A stretch of DNA of 64,000 nucleotides, from NCBI GenBank assembly GCA_021325015.1, contig JAJPHY010000054.1, positions 8,523 to 72,522 of the forward strand, read 5' to 3'. This DNA comes from Actinomycetota bacterium (lineage in GTDB: Bacteria; Actinomycetota; UBA4738; HRBIN12). The position numbers and the translations under genes are program-made. Of the stretch, positions 12,032-31,149 are shown piece after piece. The notes below the pieces were generated by a model. The model saw nothing but the letters and a program-made list of their open reading frames with translations, made no database searches and was not told the origin of the DNA. Numbering within the stretch: the stretch's first letter is position 1; each line of letters begins with the position of its first letter.

Positions 12032-12058
12032 GCTCCTACCCCCGCCATCGGTAGGAGC
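12032..12058. promoter_or_regulatory. Palindrome GCTCCTACC-N9-GGTAGGAGC, 5 nt upstream of the dynamin-like gene start and containing its SD
   Basis: Read directly from the sequence. A near-identical copy at 12195..12221 abuts the ATG of the divergent gene. Confidence 0.45.
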
Positions 12059-12104
12059 CATCAGCCCGGAGCGGGCGGTCGGCGGGCCCCATCGCCTGTT
12101 GTGG

Positions 12105-12132
12105 AGTATAGGCATCGGTCCCTCCTATACTG
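12105..12132. promoter_or_regulatory. Inverted repeat AGTATAGG-N12-CCTATACT in the centre of the divergent promoter
   Basis: Perfect 8-bp arms read from the sequence. The element is AT-rich and -10-like (TATAGG / TATACT). Confidence 0.35.
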
Positions 12133-12194
12133 CGTCGGGCGATTCGTTCGCCCGAGGCGATGGAGCTCGCCGAACCGCTCGACGTGAGCTGATA

Positions 12195-12221
12195 GCTCCT
12201 ACCCGTCGGGGAGGTAGGGGC
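12195..12221. promoter_or_regulatory. Palindrome GCTCCTACC-N9-GGTAGGGGC directly abutting ATG 12222 and containing the SD
   Basis: Read directly from the sequence. It is a twin of the element at 12032..12058. Confidence 0.45.
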
Positions 12222-23195: not shown

Positions 23196-23216
23196 GCTAG
23201 TCTGTTACAGACTAGT
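23196..23216. repeat. Palindrome AGCTAGTCTGT-T-ACAGACTAGTT, 11 nt after the LCP stop; ACTAGTCTG family
   Basis: Read directly from the sequence. The arms are 9-10 bp. The flanking genes are convergent. Confidence 0.5.
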
Positions 23217-23263
23217 TGCGGAGCTCCGGACCCCGGCACCGGCGCCGCGGCGTGCTCGGCATC

Positions 23264-24310
23264 TCAACGCGTGAGCACGTACACGACGTACGCCGCGTAG
23301 AACGCGCCCTGCAGCAAGAGCCAGGGCGCCGTGAAGCGCTTCCGGAACCGGATCGTGCCGTACAGGACGAGTCCGGCCGCGAGCGCGATGCCGGCGGCCA
23401 CCAGCGCCTCGTGCGCGAGGTGCCAGGGGGTGAGCAAGAGCCCAACGGTCACGGGGAACGAGGACTGGAACACCATCGCCCCGGTCATGTTGCCCAGCGC
23501 GAGGGTGTCCTTGCGACGCCGGACCCAGATCACGCTGTTGAACTTCTCCGGCAGCTCGGTCGCGAACGGCGCGAGGAGCAGCGCGAACACGAGGTGCGAG
23601 AGGTGGAACCGCTCGCCGAGCAGGTTCACCGCGGAGACGAACAGGCGCGCGCCGCCGACGATCAGCAGGAGAGAGACGGCGACCTGGACGAAGCTCGGCC
23701 AGCTCGGCAGGCGCTTGGACCACGCCGGGAGCGAGGGTCGCAGGCGCCGGAACCAGGCCCACACGTACAGCGGTCGGATCTCGCTCTCGGCCTCCGCCTC
23801 GAGCTCGCGCTCGCCGGGCGCGGCGAAGTGCCGCCGCACGTAGAACACGTAGCCGACGACCAGGACGGCCGAGAGGGCCCAGTCGAGCGCCCGCACGTGG
23901 ACGAGCCCGGCGACCATCGCGAGCGCGTACATCGCGAGGAAGTAGCCGAGGTCCTGCCGAAGCACGCCCGGATCGCCCTCGAGCTCCAGGCTCCGCCCGT
24001 TCGTTCGGGAGGTGACGAAGACCGCCACCGCGATCACGAACATCGCGAGCGTGGTCAGCATGAACGGCGCCCCGAGGATCGCGCCGATCCCGATCTCCTC
24101 GCCGGAGGCATGACCGGACACGATCGCGATGATCGGCAGGATCGTCTCGGGGAGCGCGGTGCCGACGGCGGCGAGCACGCTCCCGACCGCGCCGTCGGAC
24201 AGGCCGAAGCCCTCGCCGATCCACTCCACACCGTTCGTGAACAGCTCGGCGCCGGCGAGGATCACCAGGAGCGACAGGGCGAGCTCGAGCCATTGCATGG
24301 GCCGGGGCAT
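23264..24310 (-). CDS. CaCA-family cation/Ca2+ antiporter (YrbG-like)
   Basis: Alpha-repeat motifs GTALPE and ATELPE/GNMTGA, with 10 predicted TM segments. Confidence 0.8.
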   Translation of the reverse strand: MPRPMQWLELALSLLVILAGAELFTNGVEWIGEGFGLSDGAVGSVLAAVGTALPETILPIIAIVSGHASGEEIGIGAILGAPFMLTTLAMFVIAVAVFVTSRTNGRSLELEGDPGVLRQDLGYFLAMYALAMVAGLVHVRALDWALSAVLVVGYVFYVRRHFAAPGERELEAEAESEIRPLYVWAWFRRLRPSLPAWSKRLPSWPSFVQVAVSLLLIVGGARLFVSAVNLLGERFHLSHLVFALLLAPFATELPEKFNSVIWVRRRKDTLALGNMTGAMVFQSSFPVTVGLLLTPWHLAHEALVAAGIALAAGLVLYGTIRFRKRFTAPWLLLQGAFYAAYVVYVLTR

Positions 24311-24467
24311 TGTCCCACTCCGACCGGGCCCGACCCTCTGTTACGCTGCGTCGATCGAAGGGGAGTAGTCCGGAAGCGGACCTCGCCGTCATCACGGCCG
24401 ATCGGCCCGGCGGGTCCCTCGCGACGCGGGGACGAGACCTTCGGCCCGTGGAGGCTGAGGAGGTCGC

Positions 24468-25799
24468 GTGACCACGCTGAAGGAGGAGCTCCGGGACGTC
24501 CATCCGTCCCGGCAGGGCGCCTCCCTGATCCTGGCCTTCGCCGCCACCGGCCCCGGGCTCGTCCTGCGCGTCTCGGGCGCCCACGTGGCGGAGCCGCTCG
24601 CGGCCCTGCTGTTCGGCCTCGCGATCGTCGGGGCCGCGTTCCTGCTCTCGTGGGCGGCGGAGGTCGCCCAACTCGACATCTCGGCCGGCCTCGCAATCGC
24701 CGTCCTCGCCTTCATCGCGGTGCTGCCCGAGTACGCGGTCGACATGGTCTTCGCGCTGAAGGGCGGGAACGCCGTGCAGGCCTACGGGGCCGCCTGCCGA
24801 CCTCCCGGCTCGGGCGTCGAGACCGCGTGCTCGCTCGCGCTCGCCAACATGACCGGCGCGAACCGCCTGCTGATCGGGATCGGCTGGTCGATGGTGGTCT
24901 TCATCGCCTGGGCGCGGCTGCGGGCCCAGGGTCGCCCGTCGGGCGAGGTCGTCCTCGAGCGGTCGCACGCCGTCGAGGTCTCCTTCCTCGGCCTCGCCAC
25001 GGCCTACTGCCTGTTCCTGCCGCTCAAGCACTCCGTCACGCTGATCGACGCGGCCGTGCTCGTCGGGATCTTCGTCGCGTACACGATCCGGATCTCGCGC
25101 GCGCCGGCGGAGGAGCCGCACCTGGTCGGCCCCGCCCGCCTCCTCGGCGGGCTTGCGCGCGCGCCACGCCGGCTCGCCGTCGTCGGGCTGTTCGTGTTCT
25201 CGGCGGCCGTGATCCTGCTCGTCGCCGAGCGCTTCGCCGACGCGCTCGTGGGGACCGGGCGCGAGTTCGGCGTGAGCGAGTTCCTGCTGGTCCAGTGGCT
25301 CGCGCCGCTCGCCTCCGAGGCGCCCGAGCTCCTCGTCGCCGGGCTGTACGCGTGGCGGCTGAACACGAACGCCGGCCTCGGCACGCTCGTCTCGAGCAAG
25401 GTCAACCAGTGGACGCTGCTCGTCGGGACGCTCCCGGTGGTGTTCGCGCTCGGCGTCGGCGGGCTCCACGGCCTGCCGATCGACGCGCACCAGCGCGAGG
25501 AGCTGTTCCTCACGGCGGCGCAGTCGTTCTTCGCGCTCGCGGTGCTCGCCACGCTGTCGATCTCGTCGCGCGAGGCGCTCATGCTCTTCTCGCTGTTCTG
25601 GGCGCAGTTCGTGATCGGCGCGGTCGTGCCGGACTCGTTCGGCGGACGCGAGCTCGTGATCGTGGCGATCGCCTATCTGGTCCTCGGGATCCTGATCTTC
25701 GTCCGAGACCGCGAGCGGATCCCCGAGTTGCTGCGGGACGGGTTCGTGCGCCCGTATCACCTGCTGAACGGCGCGGCCGACGAGGAGGGCCGGCGGTAG
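24468..25799 (+). CDS. CaCA-family cation antiporter (second, divergent paralog-like)
   Basis: Contains AVLPEYAVD, ANMTGANRLL and ASEAPELLVAG. Membrane protein of 443 aa. Confidence 0.75.
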   Translation: MTTLKEELRDVHPSRQGASLILAFAATGPGLVLRVSGAHVAEPLAALLFGLAIVGAAFLLSWAAEVAQLDISAGLAIAVLAFIAVLPEYAVDMVFALKGGNAVQAYGAACRPPGSGVETACSLALANMTGANRLLIGIGWSMVVFIAWARLRAQGRPSGEVVLERSHAVEVSFLGLATAYCLFLPLKHSVTLIDAAVLVGIFVAYTIRISRAPAEEPHLVGPARLLGGLARAPRRLAVVGLFVFSAAVILLVAERFADALVGTGREFGVSEFLLVQWLAPLASEAPELLVAGLYAWRLNTNAGLGTLVSSKVNQWTLLVGTLPVVFALGVGGLHGLPIDAHQREELFLTAAQSFFALAVLATLSISSREALMLFSLFWAQFVIGAVVPDSFGGRELVIVAIAYLVLGILIFVRDRERIPELLRDGFVRPYHLLNGAADEEGRR

Positions 25800-25908
25800 C
25801 CTCAACGCTCCGGACGCCCGTGGCGGCGGCCGAACCAGCGACAGGTCCACTCCTGGCCTCCGATCGTCCCCAGGCGATTCACCGGCAGGTCGGTACGATC
25901 CGCGGCAT

Positions 25909-28168
25909 GGATTCGCGCGCCCTCCTGGAGCGGGTCGCCGGTCCGGACACTCTCGTCCACGTGCGCGAGCTCCCGGCTCGCCCGAACGTCGTGGAGCCGT
26001 TCCCCGAGGACCTGCCCGAGCTGCTCGTCGAGCGGCTGTCGCTCCTCGGCGTCGAGGGCCTGTACCGGCACCAGCGGGAGGCGCTCGACGCGGTCCGCGC
26101 CGGCCGGAACGTCATCGTCGCCACCGGCACGGCGAGCGGGAAGACCCTCGTCTACAACCTCGCGTTCGCGGCCGAGGCGATCCTCGACGCCAAGCGCACC
26201 GCCCTGTACCTGTACCCGACGAAGGCGCTCGCGCGCGACCAGCTCCGCCAGATCCGCGAGCTCAAGCTCCCGCAGCTAAAGGCCGCCGTGTACGACGGCG
26301 ACACGCCGCGGGCCGAGCGACCGCTCGTTCGCAAGAACGCGAACCTCGTGATGTCGAACCCCGACATGCTCCACGCCTCGCTCCTCCCCGATCACGCGCG
26401 GTGGGCGGACTTCCTGCTGCGCCTGTCGCTCGTCGTCGTCGACGAGGCGCACGTCGCGCGCGGCGTGTTCGGCTCCCACGTCGCGATGGTGCTCCGCCGG
26501 CTCCGACGCCTGATCGCCCACTACGGCGGCGAGCCGCGGTTCGTGCTCGCGAGCGCGACGGTCGGCAATCCGGCCGAGCTCGCCGAGCGGCTGGTCGGCC
26601 TGCCGTTCGACGCCGTGACCGAGGACGCCTCGCCGTCGGGCGAGAAGGTGTTCGCGCTCGTGAACCCGCCGGTGATCGACGAGGAGTCGGGGGCGCGACG
26701 GAGCGCGCTCACCGACGCGTCGGGGATCATGGCGCGCCTGGCCGAGGCGGGCGTGAGATCGATCGGGTTCACGAGGTCCCGGCGCGCCGCGGAGCTGCTC
26801 GCCGAGTTCGCGCGCCGGGAGCTGCCCGCCGAGCTCAAGCCCCGGGTGAAGTCCTACCGCGCGGGCTACCTGCCCGAGGAGCGCCGCGAGCTCGAGCGAA
26901 TGCTGGCGGAGGACCGCCTCGTGGCCGTGGCCTCGACGAGCGCGCTCGAGCTCGGGATCGACATCGGCTCGCTCGACGCGGCGATCCTCGTCGGCTACCC
27001 GGGCACCCGCGCCTCGATGTGGCAGCAGGCCGGGCGCGCCGGGCGCCGGGAGTCCGCCTCGCTCGCGGTGCTCGTCGCGCAGGACGACCCGCTCGACCAG
27101 TACCTCGTCACGCACCCCGAGGACCTGTTCGACCGGCCGGCCGAGGACGCGGTGATCGACCCCTCGAACCCGTTCGTGCTCGAGCCGCACCTTCTGTGCG
27201 CGGCCCGCGAGCACCCGCTCGCCGAAGAGGAGCTCGCGTTCTTCGGGCCCGAGGCGGCGGACGCGGCCGCCCGTCTGGAGGAGCGGGGCGAGCTGGTCCG
27301 GCGCCGGGGGACGCTCCACCACCGGGGGCGGGAGGCTCCGCACCGGCGCGTCGACATCCGGAGCTCGAGCGGGCACCTGTTCGCGATCGTGATCCGGGAG
27401 ACCGGCGAGCTCCTCGGGACCGTGGACGAGTCCCGCGCCTACGACCACGTGCATCCCGGGGCGGTCTACCTGCACCAGGGCGAGCAGTTCGAGGTCTCCG
27501 AGCTCGATCTCGCGAACCGCGTCGCGCTCGTCTCGCGCGCCGACCCCGACTACTACACGCAGTCTCGCGACACCACCGACATCGAGGTGGTCGGGGCGAG
27601 CGAGCGGGCCGCGACCGGCGACGGCGTGCCGACCTTCTACGGCGCCGTCCGCGTGACCAACCAGGTCGTGGGGTTCGTGCGGCGCCTGGTGGCCTCGGGC
27701 GAGGTGGTCGACTCGGTCCCGCTCGACCTGCCGCCGCAGACGCTCGAGACGAAGGCCGTGTGGTGGGCGATCCCCCAGCGCGTGATCTCTCGAGCGGCGA
27801 TCCGCCCGCCGGACCTGCCCGGTGCGGTGCACGCGGCCGAGCACGCCGCGATCGGGCTGCTGCCCCTCGTCGCGACGTGCGACCGGTGGGACGTCGGCGG
27901 GGTCTCCACCGCGTACCACCCCGACACCGACGCCTGCACGATCTTCGTCTACGACGGCTACGCGGGGGGCGCCGGGATCGCCGAGCGCGGGTTCCGCTCG
28001 GCCGAGCGGCTGCTCGAGGCGACGCTCGAGACCGTGCGGCGGTGCCCGTGCCCGCACGGGTGCCCCTCGTGCGTTCAGTCGCCCAAGTGCGGCAACGGCA
28101 ACGAGCCGCTCGACAAGGCCGGTGCGGTCGCGCTGCTCGCGGCGATGCTCGGGAGGAGCTGGGGATGA
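25909..28168 (+). CDS. MrfA-like DEXH-box helicase with C-terminal DUF1998 Zn-finger domain
   Basis: Walker A TGTASGKT, DEAH-type VVVDEAHV and motif VI QQAGRAGRR. The C-terminal domain has four Cys (CPCPHGCPSC...C). This is the C-terminal 753 aa of ORF 23216..28168; the upstream 900 aa are off-frame. Confidence 0.85.
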
Positions 28169-28178
28169 GGGGTTGGAG

Positions 28179-28658
28179 ATGACGGAGCGACCGTACGTCG
28201 CAGTCTGCGGGGCCGGGGTGGCAATCGAGCGGGAAGCTGCCTGGGCCGAGGAGATCGGGCGCCTGCTCGCCGAGGCCGGCGCGGTGCTGGTCTGCGGCGG
28301 GCTGGGCGGCGTGATGGACGCCGCGGCCAGGGGATGCGCATCGGCCGGCGGCACCTCGATCGGCATCCTGCCCGGCGAGTCGCGCTCGGCCGCGAGCCCG
28401 CACCTGTCGGTCGCGATCCCGACCGGGCTCGGCGAGGCGCGGAACGCGCTCGTCGTCCGGGCGGCCGACGTCGTGATCGCGGTCGGCGGCGAGTTCGGCA
28501 CGCTGTCGGAGATCGCCCTCGCGCTGAAGACGGGAAGGCCGGTCGTCGGCCTCGGGACGTGGGAGCTCGCGAGGGACGGTCAGGCGGTCGAGGCGATCGA
28601 GCGAGCCTCGAACCCCGCGGAGGCCGTCCGGCGCGCGCTCGTCCTCGTCGGAGCGTGA
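28179..28658 (+). CDS. TIGR00725-type SLOG (LOG/DprA-like Rossmann) family protein
   Basis: VAVCGAGVA...LVCGGLGGVMDAAARGCASAGGTSIGILP...VVIAVGGEFGTLSEIALAL is the SLOG signature. It lies 10 nt after the helicase stop. Confidence 0.7.
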   Translation: MTERPYVAVCGAGVAIEREAAWAEEIGRLLAEAGAVLVCGGLGGVMDAAARGCASAGGTSIGILPGESRSAASPHLSVAIPTGLGEARNALVVRAADVVIAVGGEFGTLSEIALALKTGRPVVGLGTWELARDGQAVEAIERASNPAEAVRRALVLVGA

Positions 28659-28661
28659 GCC

Positions 28662-29333
28662 TCAGCGCCCGCTCGCGGGGGGCGGCTTGAACGCAGCCCT
28701 GGCGGCGGCCTTGGCCGCCGCCTTGGCCTGCTTCGCGGCCGCCTTCACGTCGGAGCGGGCCGCTTTCCACTGCGCGGAGGCGAGCTGCGCGACCGCTCGC
28801 GCCTCGAGCGCCGCCGCCCTCGCCTCGCGCGCGGCCGCCTTGATCGATTCGCGCACGTCGGGGGGCGGCAACATCGCGAGGATGCGCTGGGCGTGTTTGC
28901 GCTGCAGCTCCGTGCCGCCCACCAGGAAGTCCCGGATCGCCCGGAGGTGCTCGATCGAGACATTCCGCATCTGTCGGTTGCCCTCCTCGCGAAGGGGTCC
29001 GTACAGCTCCCCCGCAGCTCGCAGGGTCTGCTCGGTGATCACGACGAGCACCCGCCGCTGGTCCCCCGCATCGCGAACCCGACGCACGAGCCCGGCGGAT
29101 TCCAGACGGTCCAAGGCCGCGGTCATCGCTCCGGGCGACATGCCCGTCGCTTCGGCGAGCTGACCGGCCGTCATCGGGCCCCGGACGTTCAGCATGCCGA
29201 GGCAGCGCTGATCGGTCCGGTTGATCCCGAACAGCCTGCCGACGGCGTCGTCCAGCAGGTCGCTGGCGATCTGGTACTCCTGGATCGCCCGCCCGATCTC
29301 GCGGATCAGCTCCTGTCGAGATTCATTTGACAT
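28662..29333 (-). CDS. MarR-family transcriptional regulator with Ala/Lys-rich basic C-terminal tail
   Basis: wHTH region MTAGQLAEATGMSPGAMTAALDRLESAGLVRRVRD...RRVLVVITE. The tail reads AAKQAKAAAKAAARAAFK. Start ATG 29333 (MSNESRQ) has AAAGG upstream. In-frame ATGs at 29351 and 29369 are alternatives. Confidence 0.75.
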   Translation of the reverse strand: MSNESRQELIREIGRAIQEYQIASDLLDDAVGRLFGINRTDQRCLGMLNVRGPMTAGQLAEATGMSPGAMTAALDRLESAGLVRRVRDAGDQRRVLVVITEQTLRAAGELYGPLREEGNRQMRNVSIEHLRAIRDFLVGGTELQRKHAQRILAMLPPPDVRESIKAAAREARAAALEARAVAQLASAQWKAARSDVKAAAKQAKAAAKAAARAAFKPPPASGR

Positions 29334-29356
29334 TGGAACCTTTCGATTCATAAACT
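29327..29356 (+). promoter_or_regulatory. Candidate sigma70-like promoter (TTGACA-18-TAAACT) for the ABC transporter, in an AT-rich divergent region
   Basis: Hexamers read from the sequence. The segment 29320..29380 is unusually AT-rich for this DNA. Confidence 0.35.
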
Positions 29357-29398
29357 GTTCGAGTTTCAAAAGTATACCCCCGCACGGGAGGAGAGCGG

Positions 29399-30376
29399 AT
29401 GAGCCACGCGATCGAAGCCGAGGGACTGGTCAAGACCTACCCGAAGGGCGTCCGAGCGCTCGACGGGCTGGGGTTCGCCGTCGAGGAGGGGACCATCTTC
29501 GGGCTGCTCGGCCCGAACGGAGCCGGCAAGTCCACCACCGTGAAGGTCCTGACCACGCTCTCCCGACCCGACGCCGGCGGGGCCCGGGTCGCCGGCCTGG
29601 ACGTCCTGCGCCGGCCCGACCGCGTCCGCCGGGTCATCGGGCTGGTCTCGCAGCGTTCGGCGGTGGACCCCGAGGCCACCGGACGGGAGAACCTGACCCT
29701 GCAGGGCCGCCTCTACGGCATGGAGGGGCGAGAGCTGCGCGGGCGGGTCGCGGAGCTGCTCGAACGGTTCGGGCTCGCCGGCGCCGGCAAGCGGGTCGCC
29801 CGAGACTACTCGGGTGGAATGCAGCGGCGCCTCGACATCGCGACCGGGCTCGTGCACCGCCCGAAGGTGCTGTTCCTGGACGAGCCGACGACCGGCCTCG
29901 ACCCCGAGGTGCGGGCGGACATGTGGCGCATGATCCGCGAGCTCGCCCGCGACGAGGGCCTCACGATCCTGCTCACGACGCACTACCTCGAGGAGGCCGA
30001 CCGGCTCGCCTCGCGTCTGGCGATCGTCGACCGCGGGCGCGTGGTCGCCGAAGGGACGCCTGAGGCGCTGAAGAGCGAGCTCCGCGGCGACGCCCTGCAG
30101 ATCGAGCTCGGCGACGGGCAGACGAACGGCGAGGTCCACCGCGCGCTGGCGTCGCTGGCCGAGGTGCGCGACGTGGTCCTCGAGGGACGGAGGCTCCGGG
30201 CCCGCGCCGACGACGGTCCGCGAGCGGTTCCCGTCGTGCTCCAGGCGCTCGAGTCAGCGGGGGTCCGGGTCGCGTCGGTGACCGTGTCCCGGCCCTCGCT
30301 CGACGACGTGTATCTGCGGCACACGGGCCGGAGGTTCGAGGAGGCCGATCGGGCCGAGGAGGTGAAGACGAGATGA
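29399..30376 (+). CDS. ABC transporter ATP-binding protein (DrrA-like, ABC-2 type)
   Basis: Walker A GPNGAGKST, signature YSGGMQRRL, Walker B LLFLDEPTTGLD. Strong SD GGGAGGAG. Confidence 0.9.
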   Translation: MSHAIEAEGLVKTYPKGVRALDGLGFAVEEGTIFGLLGPNGAGKSTTVKVLTTLSRPDAGGARVAGLDVLRRPDRVRRVIGLVSQRSAVDPEATGRENLTLQGRLYGMEGRELRGRVAELLERFGLAGAGKRVARDYSGGMQRRLDIATGLVHRPKVLFLDEPTTGLDPEVRADMWRMIRELARDEGLTILLTTHYLEEADRLASRLAIVDRGRVVAEGTPEALKSELRGDALQIELGDGQTNGEVHRALASLAEVRDVVLEGRRLRARADDGPRAVPVVLQALESAGVRVASVTVSRPSLDDVYLRHTGRRFEEADRAEEVKTR

Positions 30377-31149
30377 CGTCGCTGAAGCACACGTGGTACA
30401 TGACGCTCCGTCACCTGCGGGCGCTCGCCCGCCAGCCCTGGTACATCGCGTTCACGCTGGTCCAGCCGATGATCTACCTGCTGCTGTTCGGCTCGCTGTT
30501 CCAGAAGATCACGGGGCTCGGACACTTCGGCACGGCCGACTACATCGCGTACCTCACGCCGGGCATCGTCGTGATGACCGCGATGTTCTCGGGTGGGTGG
30601 TCGGGCATGGGGATGGTCTTCGACCTCGACCGGGGCGTCATGGACCGGTTCCTCGTCTCGCCGGTCCGCCGGGGCTCGCTGATCAACGGTCGCGTCGCGC
30701 AGGGCGCGATCGTGGCGGCGATTCAGGCGCTGATCATCCTCGTCGTCGGGCTCGTGCGCGGCGCTCGGTTCGACGGCGGGCCGCTCGGCGTCCTCGCGCT
30801 CATCGCGAGCGCGGTGCTGCTCGCGGCGCCGTTCATCGCGCTCTCAAACGCCACCGCGCTCATGGTGCGGAAGGAGGAGTCCGTGATCGGCGCGGTGAAC
30901 TTCATCCTGCTGCCGCTCACCTTCACCTCGTCGGTGTTCATGGCCAAGGACCTGATGCCCGGCTGGATGCAGACCGTGGCTCGGTTCAACCCGGCGAACT
31001 GGGCGGTCGAGGCCGCTCGGGACGCCGCGCTGCAGGCCCACCCGGACTGGGGCTCGATCGGCACGCACCTCGGCCTGCTCGCGGCCTTCACGGTCGTCGC
31101 GGTCGCGCTCGCCACGAGGGCCTTCCGCGCCTACCAGCGCTCCGTCTGA
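30373..31149 (+). CDS. ABC-2 type transporter permease (DrrB-like)
   Basis: Six TM segments. The start overlaps the upstream stop (ATGA). Confidence 0.85.
   Translation: MTSLKHTWYMTLRHLRALARQPWYIAFTLVQPMIYLLLFGSLFQKITGLGHFGTADYIAYLTPGIVVMTAMFSGGWSGMGMVFDLDRGVMDRFLVSPVRRGSLINGRVAQGAIVAAIQALIILVVGLVRGARFDGGPLGVLALIASAVLLAAPFIALSNATALMVRKEESVIGAVNFILLPLTFTSSVFMAKDLMPGWMQTVARFNPANWAVEAARDAALQAHPDWGSIGTHLGLLAAFTVVAVALATRAFRAYQRSV

Follow-up and report, generated by a model that had tools for sequence, protein, structure and literature searches.

Described relatives of the helicase and of its SLOG partner

MrfA (YprA) of Bacillus subtilis, a helicase implicated in the repair of mitomycin-type DNA damage (PMC7797055), has as its partner MrfB (YprB), a DEDDh 3′–5′ exonuclease whose gene adjoins that of the helicase or is fused to it. 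The SftH helicase of Mycobacterium smegmatis is a monomeric, single-stranded DNA (ssDNA)-dependent 3′-to-5′ translocase/helicase (PMC3424565), and the latest survey of YprA helicases, by Bell et al., assigned the non-defence members to a separate branch and described a housekeeping ‘YprA-only’ branch without conserved genomic context (PMC12458937). A helicase combined with a SLOG-domain protein is found in RqlH–RqlI, whose genes form one operon and whose products co-immunoprecipitate; RqlI, which has a MoCo-binding/DprA-like region, binds the RecQ-like RqlH and restrains its genotoxicity, the C-terminal phosphoribosyltransferase (PRTase) domain of RqlH being both the toxic part and the part to which RqlI binds (PMC4670107). 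Here we describe a locus from an uncultured Actinomycetota bacterium (assembly GCA_021325015.1, contig JAJPHY010000054.1, positions 8,523 to 72,522; this stretch of 64,000 nucleotides is referred to as the window and numbered from its first letter) in which the gene of an SftH/MrfA(YprA)-type superfamily 2 (SF2) DEAH helicase is directly followed by that of a small SLOG cluster 4/TIGR00725 protein. Members of both families occur widely, and their roles in vivo are poorly understood. For SftH, biochemistry is available, and we know of no pathway assigned to it in Actinobacteria; likewise, we know of no function established for TIGR00725/SLOG cluster 4 proteins outside the cyanobacterial and algal molybdenum cofactor (Moco) carriers. 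A literature search found no paper mentioning TIGR00725 or TIGR03817; any cluster 4 neighbourhoods reported by Burroughs et al. (2015) lay outside its scope. We read the helicase–SLOG pair, which has not been described before, as a variant of the SftH/MrfA locus restricted to some lineages.

The two genes and their products

The helicase gene extends from position 25907 to 28168 on the forward strand (ATG at 25907, TGA at 28166–28168) and encodes 753 amino acids. It is separated by a 10-nt intercistronic spacer, GGGGTTGGAG (28169–28178, forward strand), whose GGAG end abuts the start codon of the SLOG gene, from the 159 codons of the latter (28179–28658, forward strand; ATG at 28179, TGA at 28656–28658), which could alternatively begin with the in-frame TTG at 28173. 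A preliminary description of the locus had placed the pair at 25909–28658; the end was correct, and the start given there falls on the third base of the helicase ATG, which begins at 25907. As the G+C content of the window is ∼72%, raw lists of open reading frames (ORFs) were swamped by spurious long frames, and the true genes were chosen by frame plots of G+C at third codon positions (GC3) together with direct translation. The GC3 plot backed the reading frames of both genes, which are called identically in an independent public annotation of the identical contig. A mechanically listed ORF of 1650 aa (23216–28168, forward strand), whose frame stays open for 2.7 kb before the true helicase start, was rejected as an artefact of the 72% G+C content and does not represent a larger protein.

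The next gene downstream, encoding a MarR-family regulator (28662–29369, reverse strand; frame plot and Pfam MarR_2, 2.9e-14), is convergent, its stop codon lying 3 nt away from that of the SLOG gene. Therefore, the SLOG gene is the last of the unit and does not belong to any operon further downstream, a possibility that the preliminary description had named as one that would refute its reading. As the SLOG gene lies only 10 nt behind the helicase gene on the same strand, co-transcription is likely, and the two genes probably constitute an operon, that is, a two-gene unit with the MarR gene as its 3′ boundary and outside it. A spacer of 107 nt (25800–25906, forward strand), delimited by sequence and frame plot between a Na/Ca-exchanger gene (24468–25799) and the helicase start, is a possible candidate for the promoter region. 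No sigma-70-like site was detected in this spacer by a promoter scan, and Rfam and promoter/terminator scans of the locus returned nothing at the helicase–SLOG pair.

Pfam analysis of the helicase revealed the domains DEAD (7e-29), Helicase_C (4e-11), WHD_HRQ1 (7.5e-13) and MZB, i.e. DUF1998 (3e-23), arranged as RecA1, RecA2, winged helix and a C-terminal MZB domain with the four cysteines 713, 715, 719 and 722; the motifs GTASGKT, DEAH, SAT and QQAGRAGRR are located at residues 74, 179, 216 and 373, respectively. The protein scored 1015.1 bits against the NCBIfam model TIGR03817 (cut-off 874.1), residues 16–749 covering positions 1–740 of the 742 in the model, and its residues 6–725 aligned with the structure of B. 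subtilis YprA/MrfA (6ZNP) with E = 3.9e-155. On these profile and structure matches, the window helicase is an actinobacterial SftH/TIGR03817 orthologue and at the same time a full-length MrfA homologue. Ten helicases sampled across the tree of its relatives, with or without an adjacent SLOG gene, all scored as TIGR03817 (850–1244 bits), thereby placing the window gene among housekeeping orthologues. No nuclease domain was found in it with Pfam. By analogy to the M. smegmatis enzyme, the one family member with known biochemistry (PMC3424565), the protein would be expected to act as a 3′–5′ ssDNA translocase/helicase.

Compared with mrfAB, the window locus shares a full-length MrfA homologue (RecA1/2, winged helix, OB-CON and MZB) accompanied by a second gene in an apparent operon (PMC7797055), but that gene encodes a SLOG Rossmann protein (PF18306) and not a DEDDh 3′–5′ exonuclease, and the gene upstream is a Na/Ca exchanger. 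The preliminary description was thus right in recognizing a helicase with a C-terminal four-cysteine DUF1998 domain, a 159-aa TIGR00725/SLOG gene 10 nt downstream and a pairing that departs from the mrfAB arrangement. Its wording that the SLOG gene stands ‘instead of’ MrfB was, however, misleading, given that the helicase is an SftH/TIGR03817 orthologue and that none of the 10 downstream genes scanned in loci of related helicases encodes an exonuclease. With SftH/TIGR03817 the window helicase shares orthologous family membership and the order of an SF2 motor followed by the four-cysteine DUF1998, whereas the locus lacks the H+-pyrophosphatase (H+-PPase)/anti-sigma/STAS block and the Tad operon, and has the SLOG gene behind the helicase gene.

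The SLOG protein matched PF18306 (LDcluster4) with 5.6e-44 and 149.8 bits (cut-off 26.3) and TIGR00725 with 118.3 bits (cut-off 106.9). Its best matches in the PDB were 6Y01 (1.2e-22), 2IZ5 (5.9e-22) and 1RCU (7.6e-21), the nearest solved relatives being the Moco carrier proteins (MCPs) of Rippkaea (RoMCP, 6Y01) and Chlamydomonas (CrMCP, 2IZ5) and Thermotoga TM1055. An AlphaFold2 model (pLDDT 92.1, pTM 0.89) gave a Foldseek template modelling (TM) score of 0.89 to 6Y01, with the MCPs ranking best and LOG enzymes and DprA structures lower down. The model indicates a Rossmann-like SLOG fold that resembles the Moco carrier proteins. Residues R88, G107, T108 and E111 are conserved in the family alignment, R88 and E111 being the equivalents of the catalytic Arg/Glu pair of LOG enzymes. 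With the LOG phosphoribohydrolases (TIGR00730; 5ZBJ, Rv1205) the protein has the fold in common, and the Arg of their MHxRK motif and the Glu of PGGxGTxxE align with R88 and E111; however, it reached only 47.4 bits against TIGR00730 (cut-off 96.35), and the corresponding motifs read GEARN and GGEFGTLSE.

The closeness to CrMCP and RoMCP in both sequence and predicted fold raised the question of whether the SLOG protein might be a genuine molybdenum-cofactor carrier that is functionally unrelated to the helicase. These two experimentally confirmed carriers are its best matches (E ∼1e-22, 33–36% identity in the structural alignment, TM 0.84–0.89; PMC7470044). However, only half of the anion-site residues of RoMCP are kept: Arg89 and Thr109 correspond to R88 and T108, but Gly takes the place of Ser67 and Leu that of Arg42, the latter also in most of the subfamily (residues of RoMCP from PMC7470044). 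Moreover, no Moco biosynthesis or molybdoenzyme gene was present among the Pfam-annotated neighbours (∼21.5–32.5 kb), the gene is paired with a helicase, and the authors of the RoMCP study express doubts of their own as to whether remote homologues from bacteria are MCPs (PMC7470044). We therefore consider a true Moco carrier quite improbable here.

A further relationship, to DprA, could imply that the SLOG protein binds ssDNA made by the helicase and recruits recombination proteins. The protein belongs to the SMF/DprA-LOG superfamily, as reflected in a weak match to PF02481 (1.8e-4) and in the DprA structures among the Foldseek matches, and for ShosA, a DprA-like member of the SLOG superfamily, a supporting role in DNA repair is on record (PMC11961720). 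Nevertheless, the protein resembles MCP and LOG far more than it does DprA, whose SAM and winged-helix domains it lacks, and is acidic (pI 5.05; median 4.7 among helicase-adjacent SLOGs) and hence unlikely to bind ssDNA, so that a DprA-like role appears very unlikely.

Conservation of the helicase–SLOG pair

In order to see the pairing from both sides, two samples of related loci were compiled, each representing the best 80 of ∼600 pattern hits, with genes called by a simple home-made GC3/ORF caller. The SLOG-centred sample consisted of 80 loci from species-representative genomes fetched with an alignment of 13 SLOG sequences, and the helicase-centred sample of 80 metagenomic loci, without taxonomy, whose helicases are 85–46% identical to that of the window; 73 of the latter were testable, and SLOG genes in them were detected with a profile built from a diverse SLOG alignment. 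Of the 70 SLOG loci with enough upstream sequence, 12 had a helicase gene directly 5′ of the SLOG gene in the same orientation, and eight further ones had one within 6 kb; 19 of these 20 helicase-linked loci were labelled Actinomycetota, Thermoleophilia or Solirubrobacterales. Seen from the helicase, a SLOG gene followed directly 3′ in 15/73 loci, namely in seven of eight with a helicase identity of at least 68%, in four of five at 57–59% and in four of 60 at 55% or less, where one more was found at a distance of 1.3 kb. The adjacency, whose conservation beyond this genome the preliminary description had proposed to check, is therefore real, more than a matter of chance and conserved in several deep actinobacterial lineages, although not universal.

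A neighbour-joining tree of 97 helicases, onto which the flanking genes were mapped, resolved the SLOG-linked members, down to 47% identity, into three clades with unrelated flanks, apart from the two singletons L055 and L075. In clade 1, to which the window belongs, the order is LCP, Na/Ca exchanger(s), helicase–SLOG, membrane protein and flippase; in clade 2 it is STAS, a gene without assignment, LCP and helicase–SLOG; and in clade 3, where the linkage is patchy, a HAD hydrolase and FolP precede helicase–SLOG. As the flanks differ among these clades, it is the pair alone that persists. The junction, measured to the nearest in-frame start codon, comprises a 4-nt overlap in L002, L007 and L033, a 1-nt overlap in L066, a gap of 3–10 nt in L069, L055 and the window, and one of 31–107 nt in the remaining adjacent loci; the 4-nt overlaps suggest translational coupling in these relatives. 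Furthermore, helicase and SLOG distances co-varied among 26 adjacent pairs (Mantel r = 0.87, a value reached in 0 of 2000 permutations), as would be expected if an ancestral pair had been passed on vertically as a whole, with losses occurring later.

In clade 3, the helicase–SLOG pair is immediately preceded by a gene for a FolP-like pterin-binding enzyme (PF00809, 1.2e-57), as scanned on L156 (3040–3882); the corresponding genes of L066 (2749–3684) and L155 were assigned by sequence cluster. Its position beside the pair is curious since the nearest characterized relatives of the SLOG protein bind a pterin cofactor, but may be a coincidence.

Ten other helicase loci have a tightly coupled downstream gene on the same strand, and this belonged to a different family each time: PrsW, RsmI, GNAT, an oxidoreductase, Mrr, phosphoenolpyruvate carboxykinase, HD, a 4Fe-4S protein, Lgt and a large peptidase. 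No exonuclease was found among these 10 scanned genes, the Tad-type neighbours having been annotated separately. The Mrr-type restriction endonuclease of L134 (5162–6097; Mrr_N + Mrr_cat, 1.2e-35), which lies 57 nt after a TIGR03817-type helicase gene, was the only defence-like helicase partner in the metagenomic sample. In a large clade of helicases without SLOG, the helicase gene is preceded by those for an H+-PPase, an anti-sigma kinase and STAS and faces a convergent Tad-type secretion operon on its downstream side. It is this helicase/secretion neighbourhood, with a convergent Tad/type II secretion-like operon downstream, that TIGR03817 is named for. Queries with T2SSE, T2SSF, TadE, STAS and anti-sigma kinase from related loci gave no match in the 64-kb window (tblastn). 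Two contexts thus emerge for the ‘YprA-only’ branch, the STAS/anti-sigma/Tad neighbourhood and a tightly coupled SLOG partner, the second being found in Thermoleophilia-like and other uncultured Actinomycetota.

Outside the pair, SLOG cluster 4 genes occur in diverse settings, as read from the sequences of the gene clusters in loci of other phyla. The neighbours are LigT, the usual upstream gene there, and a PRTase in Anaerolineae; enolase, a metallo-β-lactamase hydrolase and glyceraldehyde-3-phosphate dehydrogenase (GAPDH) in Dehalococcoidia; acylphosphatase and adenine phosphoribosyltransferase (APRT) in Ignavibacteria and Zixibacteria; and leucyl-tRNA synthetase (LeuRS) and HolA in some Solirubrobacterales. 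A further setting was met in an actinobacterial group to which Ca. Solincola belongs, where the gene for SLOG lies amid LarE, LarC and a convergent LarA, identified from sequence (L018, 3841–7921; L022, 138–4682; L035 and L068), with a TIGR03817-type helicase gene 2–5 kb away on the opposite strand in L018, L022 and L035; no such helicase was detected in L068. By analogy to Moco carriage, this setting suggests a carrier for the nickel-pincer nucleotide cofactor. Six proteins were found in which SLOG cluster 4 is fused to another domain, i.e. to a LigT/2H phosphoesterase, an AAA_33 kinase, the 2-thiouracil desulfurase TudS (twice), DUF429 or DUF433 (P0242, P0258, P0267, P0271, P0283 and P0259), the other long proteins among the 150 top SLOG cluster representatives being tandem SLOGs. 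The fusions, together with LigT as the neighbour in Anaerolineae, point to a role of the family in nucleotide or RNA-end chemistry. Judged from these neighbours, what the settings share is mononucleotide, phosphoribosyl or cofactor chemistry and not conflict systems. The link that the preliminary description drew between SLOG domains and conflict systems does not hold for the window protein, which belongs to the TIGR00725/Moco-carrier branch with its housekeeping nucleotide/cofactor contexts elsewhere.

In the explanation that we prefer, the two-gene unit would form part of the housekeeping genome-maintenance equipment of its host and may serve DNA repair in this organism. The pocket of the SLOG protein, in which the LOG Arg/Glu pair is kept, could be shaped for a phosphoribosyl- or mononucleotide-type ligand, and the protein would be an accessory of the helicase: by binding or hydrolysing a small molecule derived from a nucleotide, it would tune the helicase or clear a nucleotide product of repair, with a parallel in RqlI, which physically restrains the RecQ-like RqlH. 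A nucleotide-sensing repair pair, as already envisaged in the preliminary description, is a possible interpretation of the sequences. We put functional coupling of the helicase and SLOG as such at slightly less than an even chance, and regard the choice of any specific ligand as far more tentative than that. In its most explicit form, the proposal would comprise a physical complex of an SftH-type helicase and a SLOG protein that senses or hydrolyses a nucleotide-derived molecule, such as a damaged nucleoside monophosphate, an ADP-ribose derivative or a pterin/mononucleotide cofactor, and thereby gates the helicase, as a housekeeping and vertically inherited counterpart of RqlH–RqlI/PsyrTA; taken together with these candidate ligands, we consider this version unlikely. 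If it were true, the ‘YprA-only’ repair-helicase branch would have its first functional partner. Any functional link would provide a testable handle on both proteins and extend the helicase-plus-SLOG logic of RqlHI/PsyrTA to a housekeeping repair helicase.

The main rival explanation is neutral synteny, according to which the SLOG gene merely lies downstream of the helicase gene in some lineages and is co-transcribed by position, its product serving nucleotide or cofactor metabolism as a housekeeping protein independent of the helicase. Several observations weigh against a coupled function and in favour of this view. The contexts of SLOG are promiscuous, from LigT + PRTase, enolase/GAPDH, LarC/LarA, LeuRS/HolA and acylphosphatase + APRT to the fusions described above, and 50 of the 70 testable SLOG cluster 4 loci are without the helicase. 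Conversely, other TIGR03817 helicases do without SLOG, with no such gene within ∼4 kb in 57 of the 73 testable helicase loci. Even in clade 1 the pair has been split by insertions, namely by one small ORF on the opposite strand in L004, by a phosphoesterase gene together with two further genes in L014 and L037, and by five genes in L015, both genes being retained in all four of these loci; in L089 the same phosphoesterase gene is located 3′ of the helicase gene and no SLOG gene is present within 3.5 kb. No helicase–SLOG fusion was found in the top 120 helicase hits (713–774 aa) or the top 150 SLOG hits. The helicase bears no partner-specific signature: none of its residues follow the presence of SLOG, the only candidates being four weak alignment columns whose residues are found just as often in clade 3 members without SLOG. 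Neither a LexA box nor a RecA-NDp motif (two mismatches at most) occurs consistently upstream in the window and 25 related loci. In addition, the co-variation of distances may simply mirror the species phylogeny, and both the ligand and the interaction are inferred throughout. On the other hand, neutral synteny does not readily account for an adjacency that has outlasted the replacement of all other neighbours in three deep clades, the stop and start codons of the two genes often overlapping, nor for the fact that no other partner recurs among the 10 tightly coupled downstream genes. We consider neutral synteny a serious possibility, even if not a probable one. The pair is probably a conserved and functional operon in some lineages, whereas the data do not support an obligate two-component machine.

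Defence systems and the surrounding genes

The two proteins were submitted to PADLOC. For the helicase this gave only partial matches to the helicase core, in the DruE, BrxH, PsyrT, DrmA, DpdF and Cas3 models, and for the SLOG protein only a weak match to PsyrA, and membership in a defence system was accordingly rejected. DISARM (DrmA/DrmB) and Druantia (DruE) have the SF2 core and the DUF1998/MZB module in common with the window helicase (PMC12458937). However, in the latter DUF1998 is fused to the helicase and does not form a separate DrmB, the DrmA matches are partial, and neither the phospholipase D-type nuclease DrmC nor a methyltransferase is present; likewise, DruA–D and DruH are missing, and the helicase has 753 aa compared with 1460–2055 positions in the DruE models. 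The SLOG protein also differs from sensors of the Thoeris ThsA type, in which SLOG is joined to a SIR2 or transmembrane effector beside a TIR (ThsB) gene, in being a single domain, with no TIR or SIR2 gene nearby and no PADLOC match to ThsA.

For the pair as such, the nearest known analogue, absent from the preliminary description, is RqlH–RqlI of E. coli and Pseudomonas, equivalent to PsyrT–PsyrA, which has the same architecture, with the gene for an SF2 helicase first and that for a SLOG-domain protein second. By this analogy the locus could be a defence or toxin–antitoxin module with the helicase as effector or toxin and the SLOG protein as sensor or antitoxin, and weak PADLOC matches to PsyrT (1.1e-21, residues 286–400 of the helicase, core only) and to PsyrA (1.4e-7, 29 bits, residues 4–67 of the SLOG protein) point in the same direction. 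However, the window helicase is of the YprA/SftH type, belongs to the housekeeping family TIGR03817 and not to a defence clade, and ends in MZB without the PRTase domain that mediates the toxicity of RqlH and the binding of RqlI (PMC4670107). RqlI, moreover, has an extra N-terminal region and a helix-turn-helix, and the PsyrA model spans ∼400 positions, whereas the SLOG protein is a bare domain of 159 aa.

RqlHI acts in the manner of a toxin–antitoxin or defence module, whereas the present locus is of a housekeeping kind. The genes flanking the pair were assigned by Pfam to an LCP transferase, two Na/Ca exchangers, MarR, a DrrAB-like ABC-2 exporter and an M24 peptidase; a membrane protein without family match lies further upstream, a flippase gene is found at 34.7–36.2 kb, and an NhaA-like antiporter, a CLC channel and an MMPL transporter, read from their translations, are also nearby. 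No defence or mobile-element gene was present among the annotated neighbours of the pair. A mobile-element context was rejected as well, with no tRNA gene in the window and no relative of the helicase on viral contigs, where only 12 distant SLOGs were found, none of them paired with a helicase. Furthermore, the locus is syntenic within its clade and inherited vertically, its two genes co-diverging. Thus, the phage-defence interpretation, one of the two offered in the preliminary description, has no support, and we regard a module of the RqlHI/PsyrTA type as highly improbable. Should the pair prove not to be functional, it would be a warning against taking every DUF1998 helicase or SLOG gene as a component of a defence system.

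The two Na/Ca-exchanger-family genes just 5′ of the helicase gene form a divergent pair (23264–24310, reverse strand, and 24468–25799, forward strand), and one or both of them recur upstream of the helicase–SLOG pair in most relatives from the window’s clade. On the other side, the MarR gene and a pair of DrrA/DrrB-like ABC-2 exporter genes (29399–31149) point away from each other, and a strong sigma-70-like site (TTGACA, 18 nt, TAAACT) was located at 29327–29356 in the intergenic region shared by MarR and ABC-2; the arrangement looks like a typical MarR-controlled efflux module. At a greater distance, two fluoride riboswitches (RF01734) were detected back to back in one intergenic region, at 12045–12105 on the reverse strand and 12147–12208 on the forward strand, with scores of 47.2 and 48.7 bits (gathering score 34); these opposed riboswitches would control genes on both strands. 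A gene for a CLC-type channel with CBS domains, annotated from its translation, is located at ∼19.8–21.45 kb, some 8 kb from the riboswitches.

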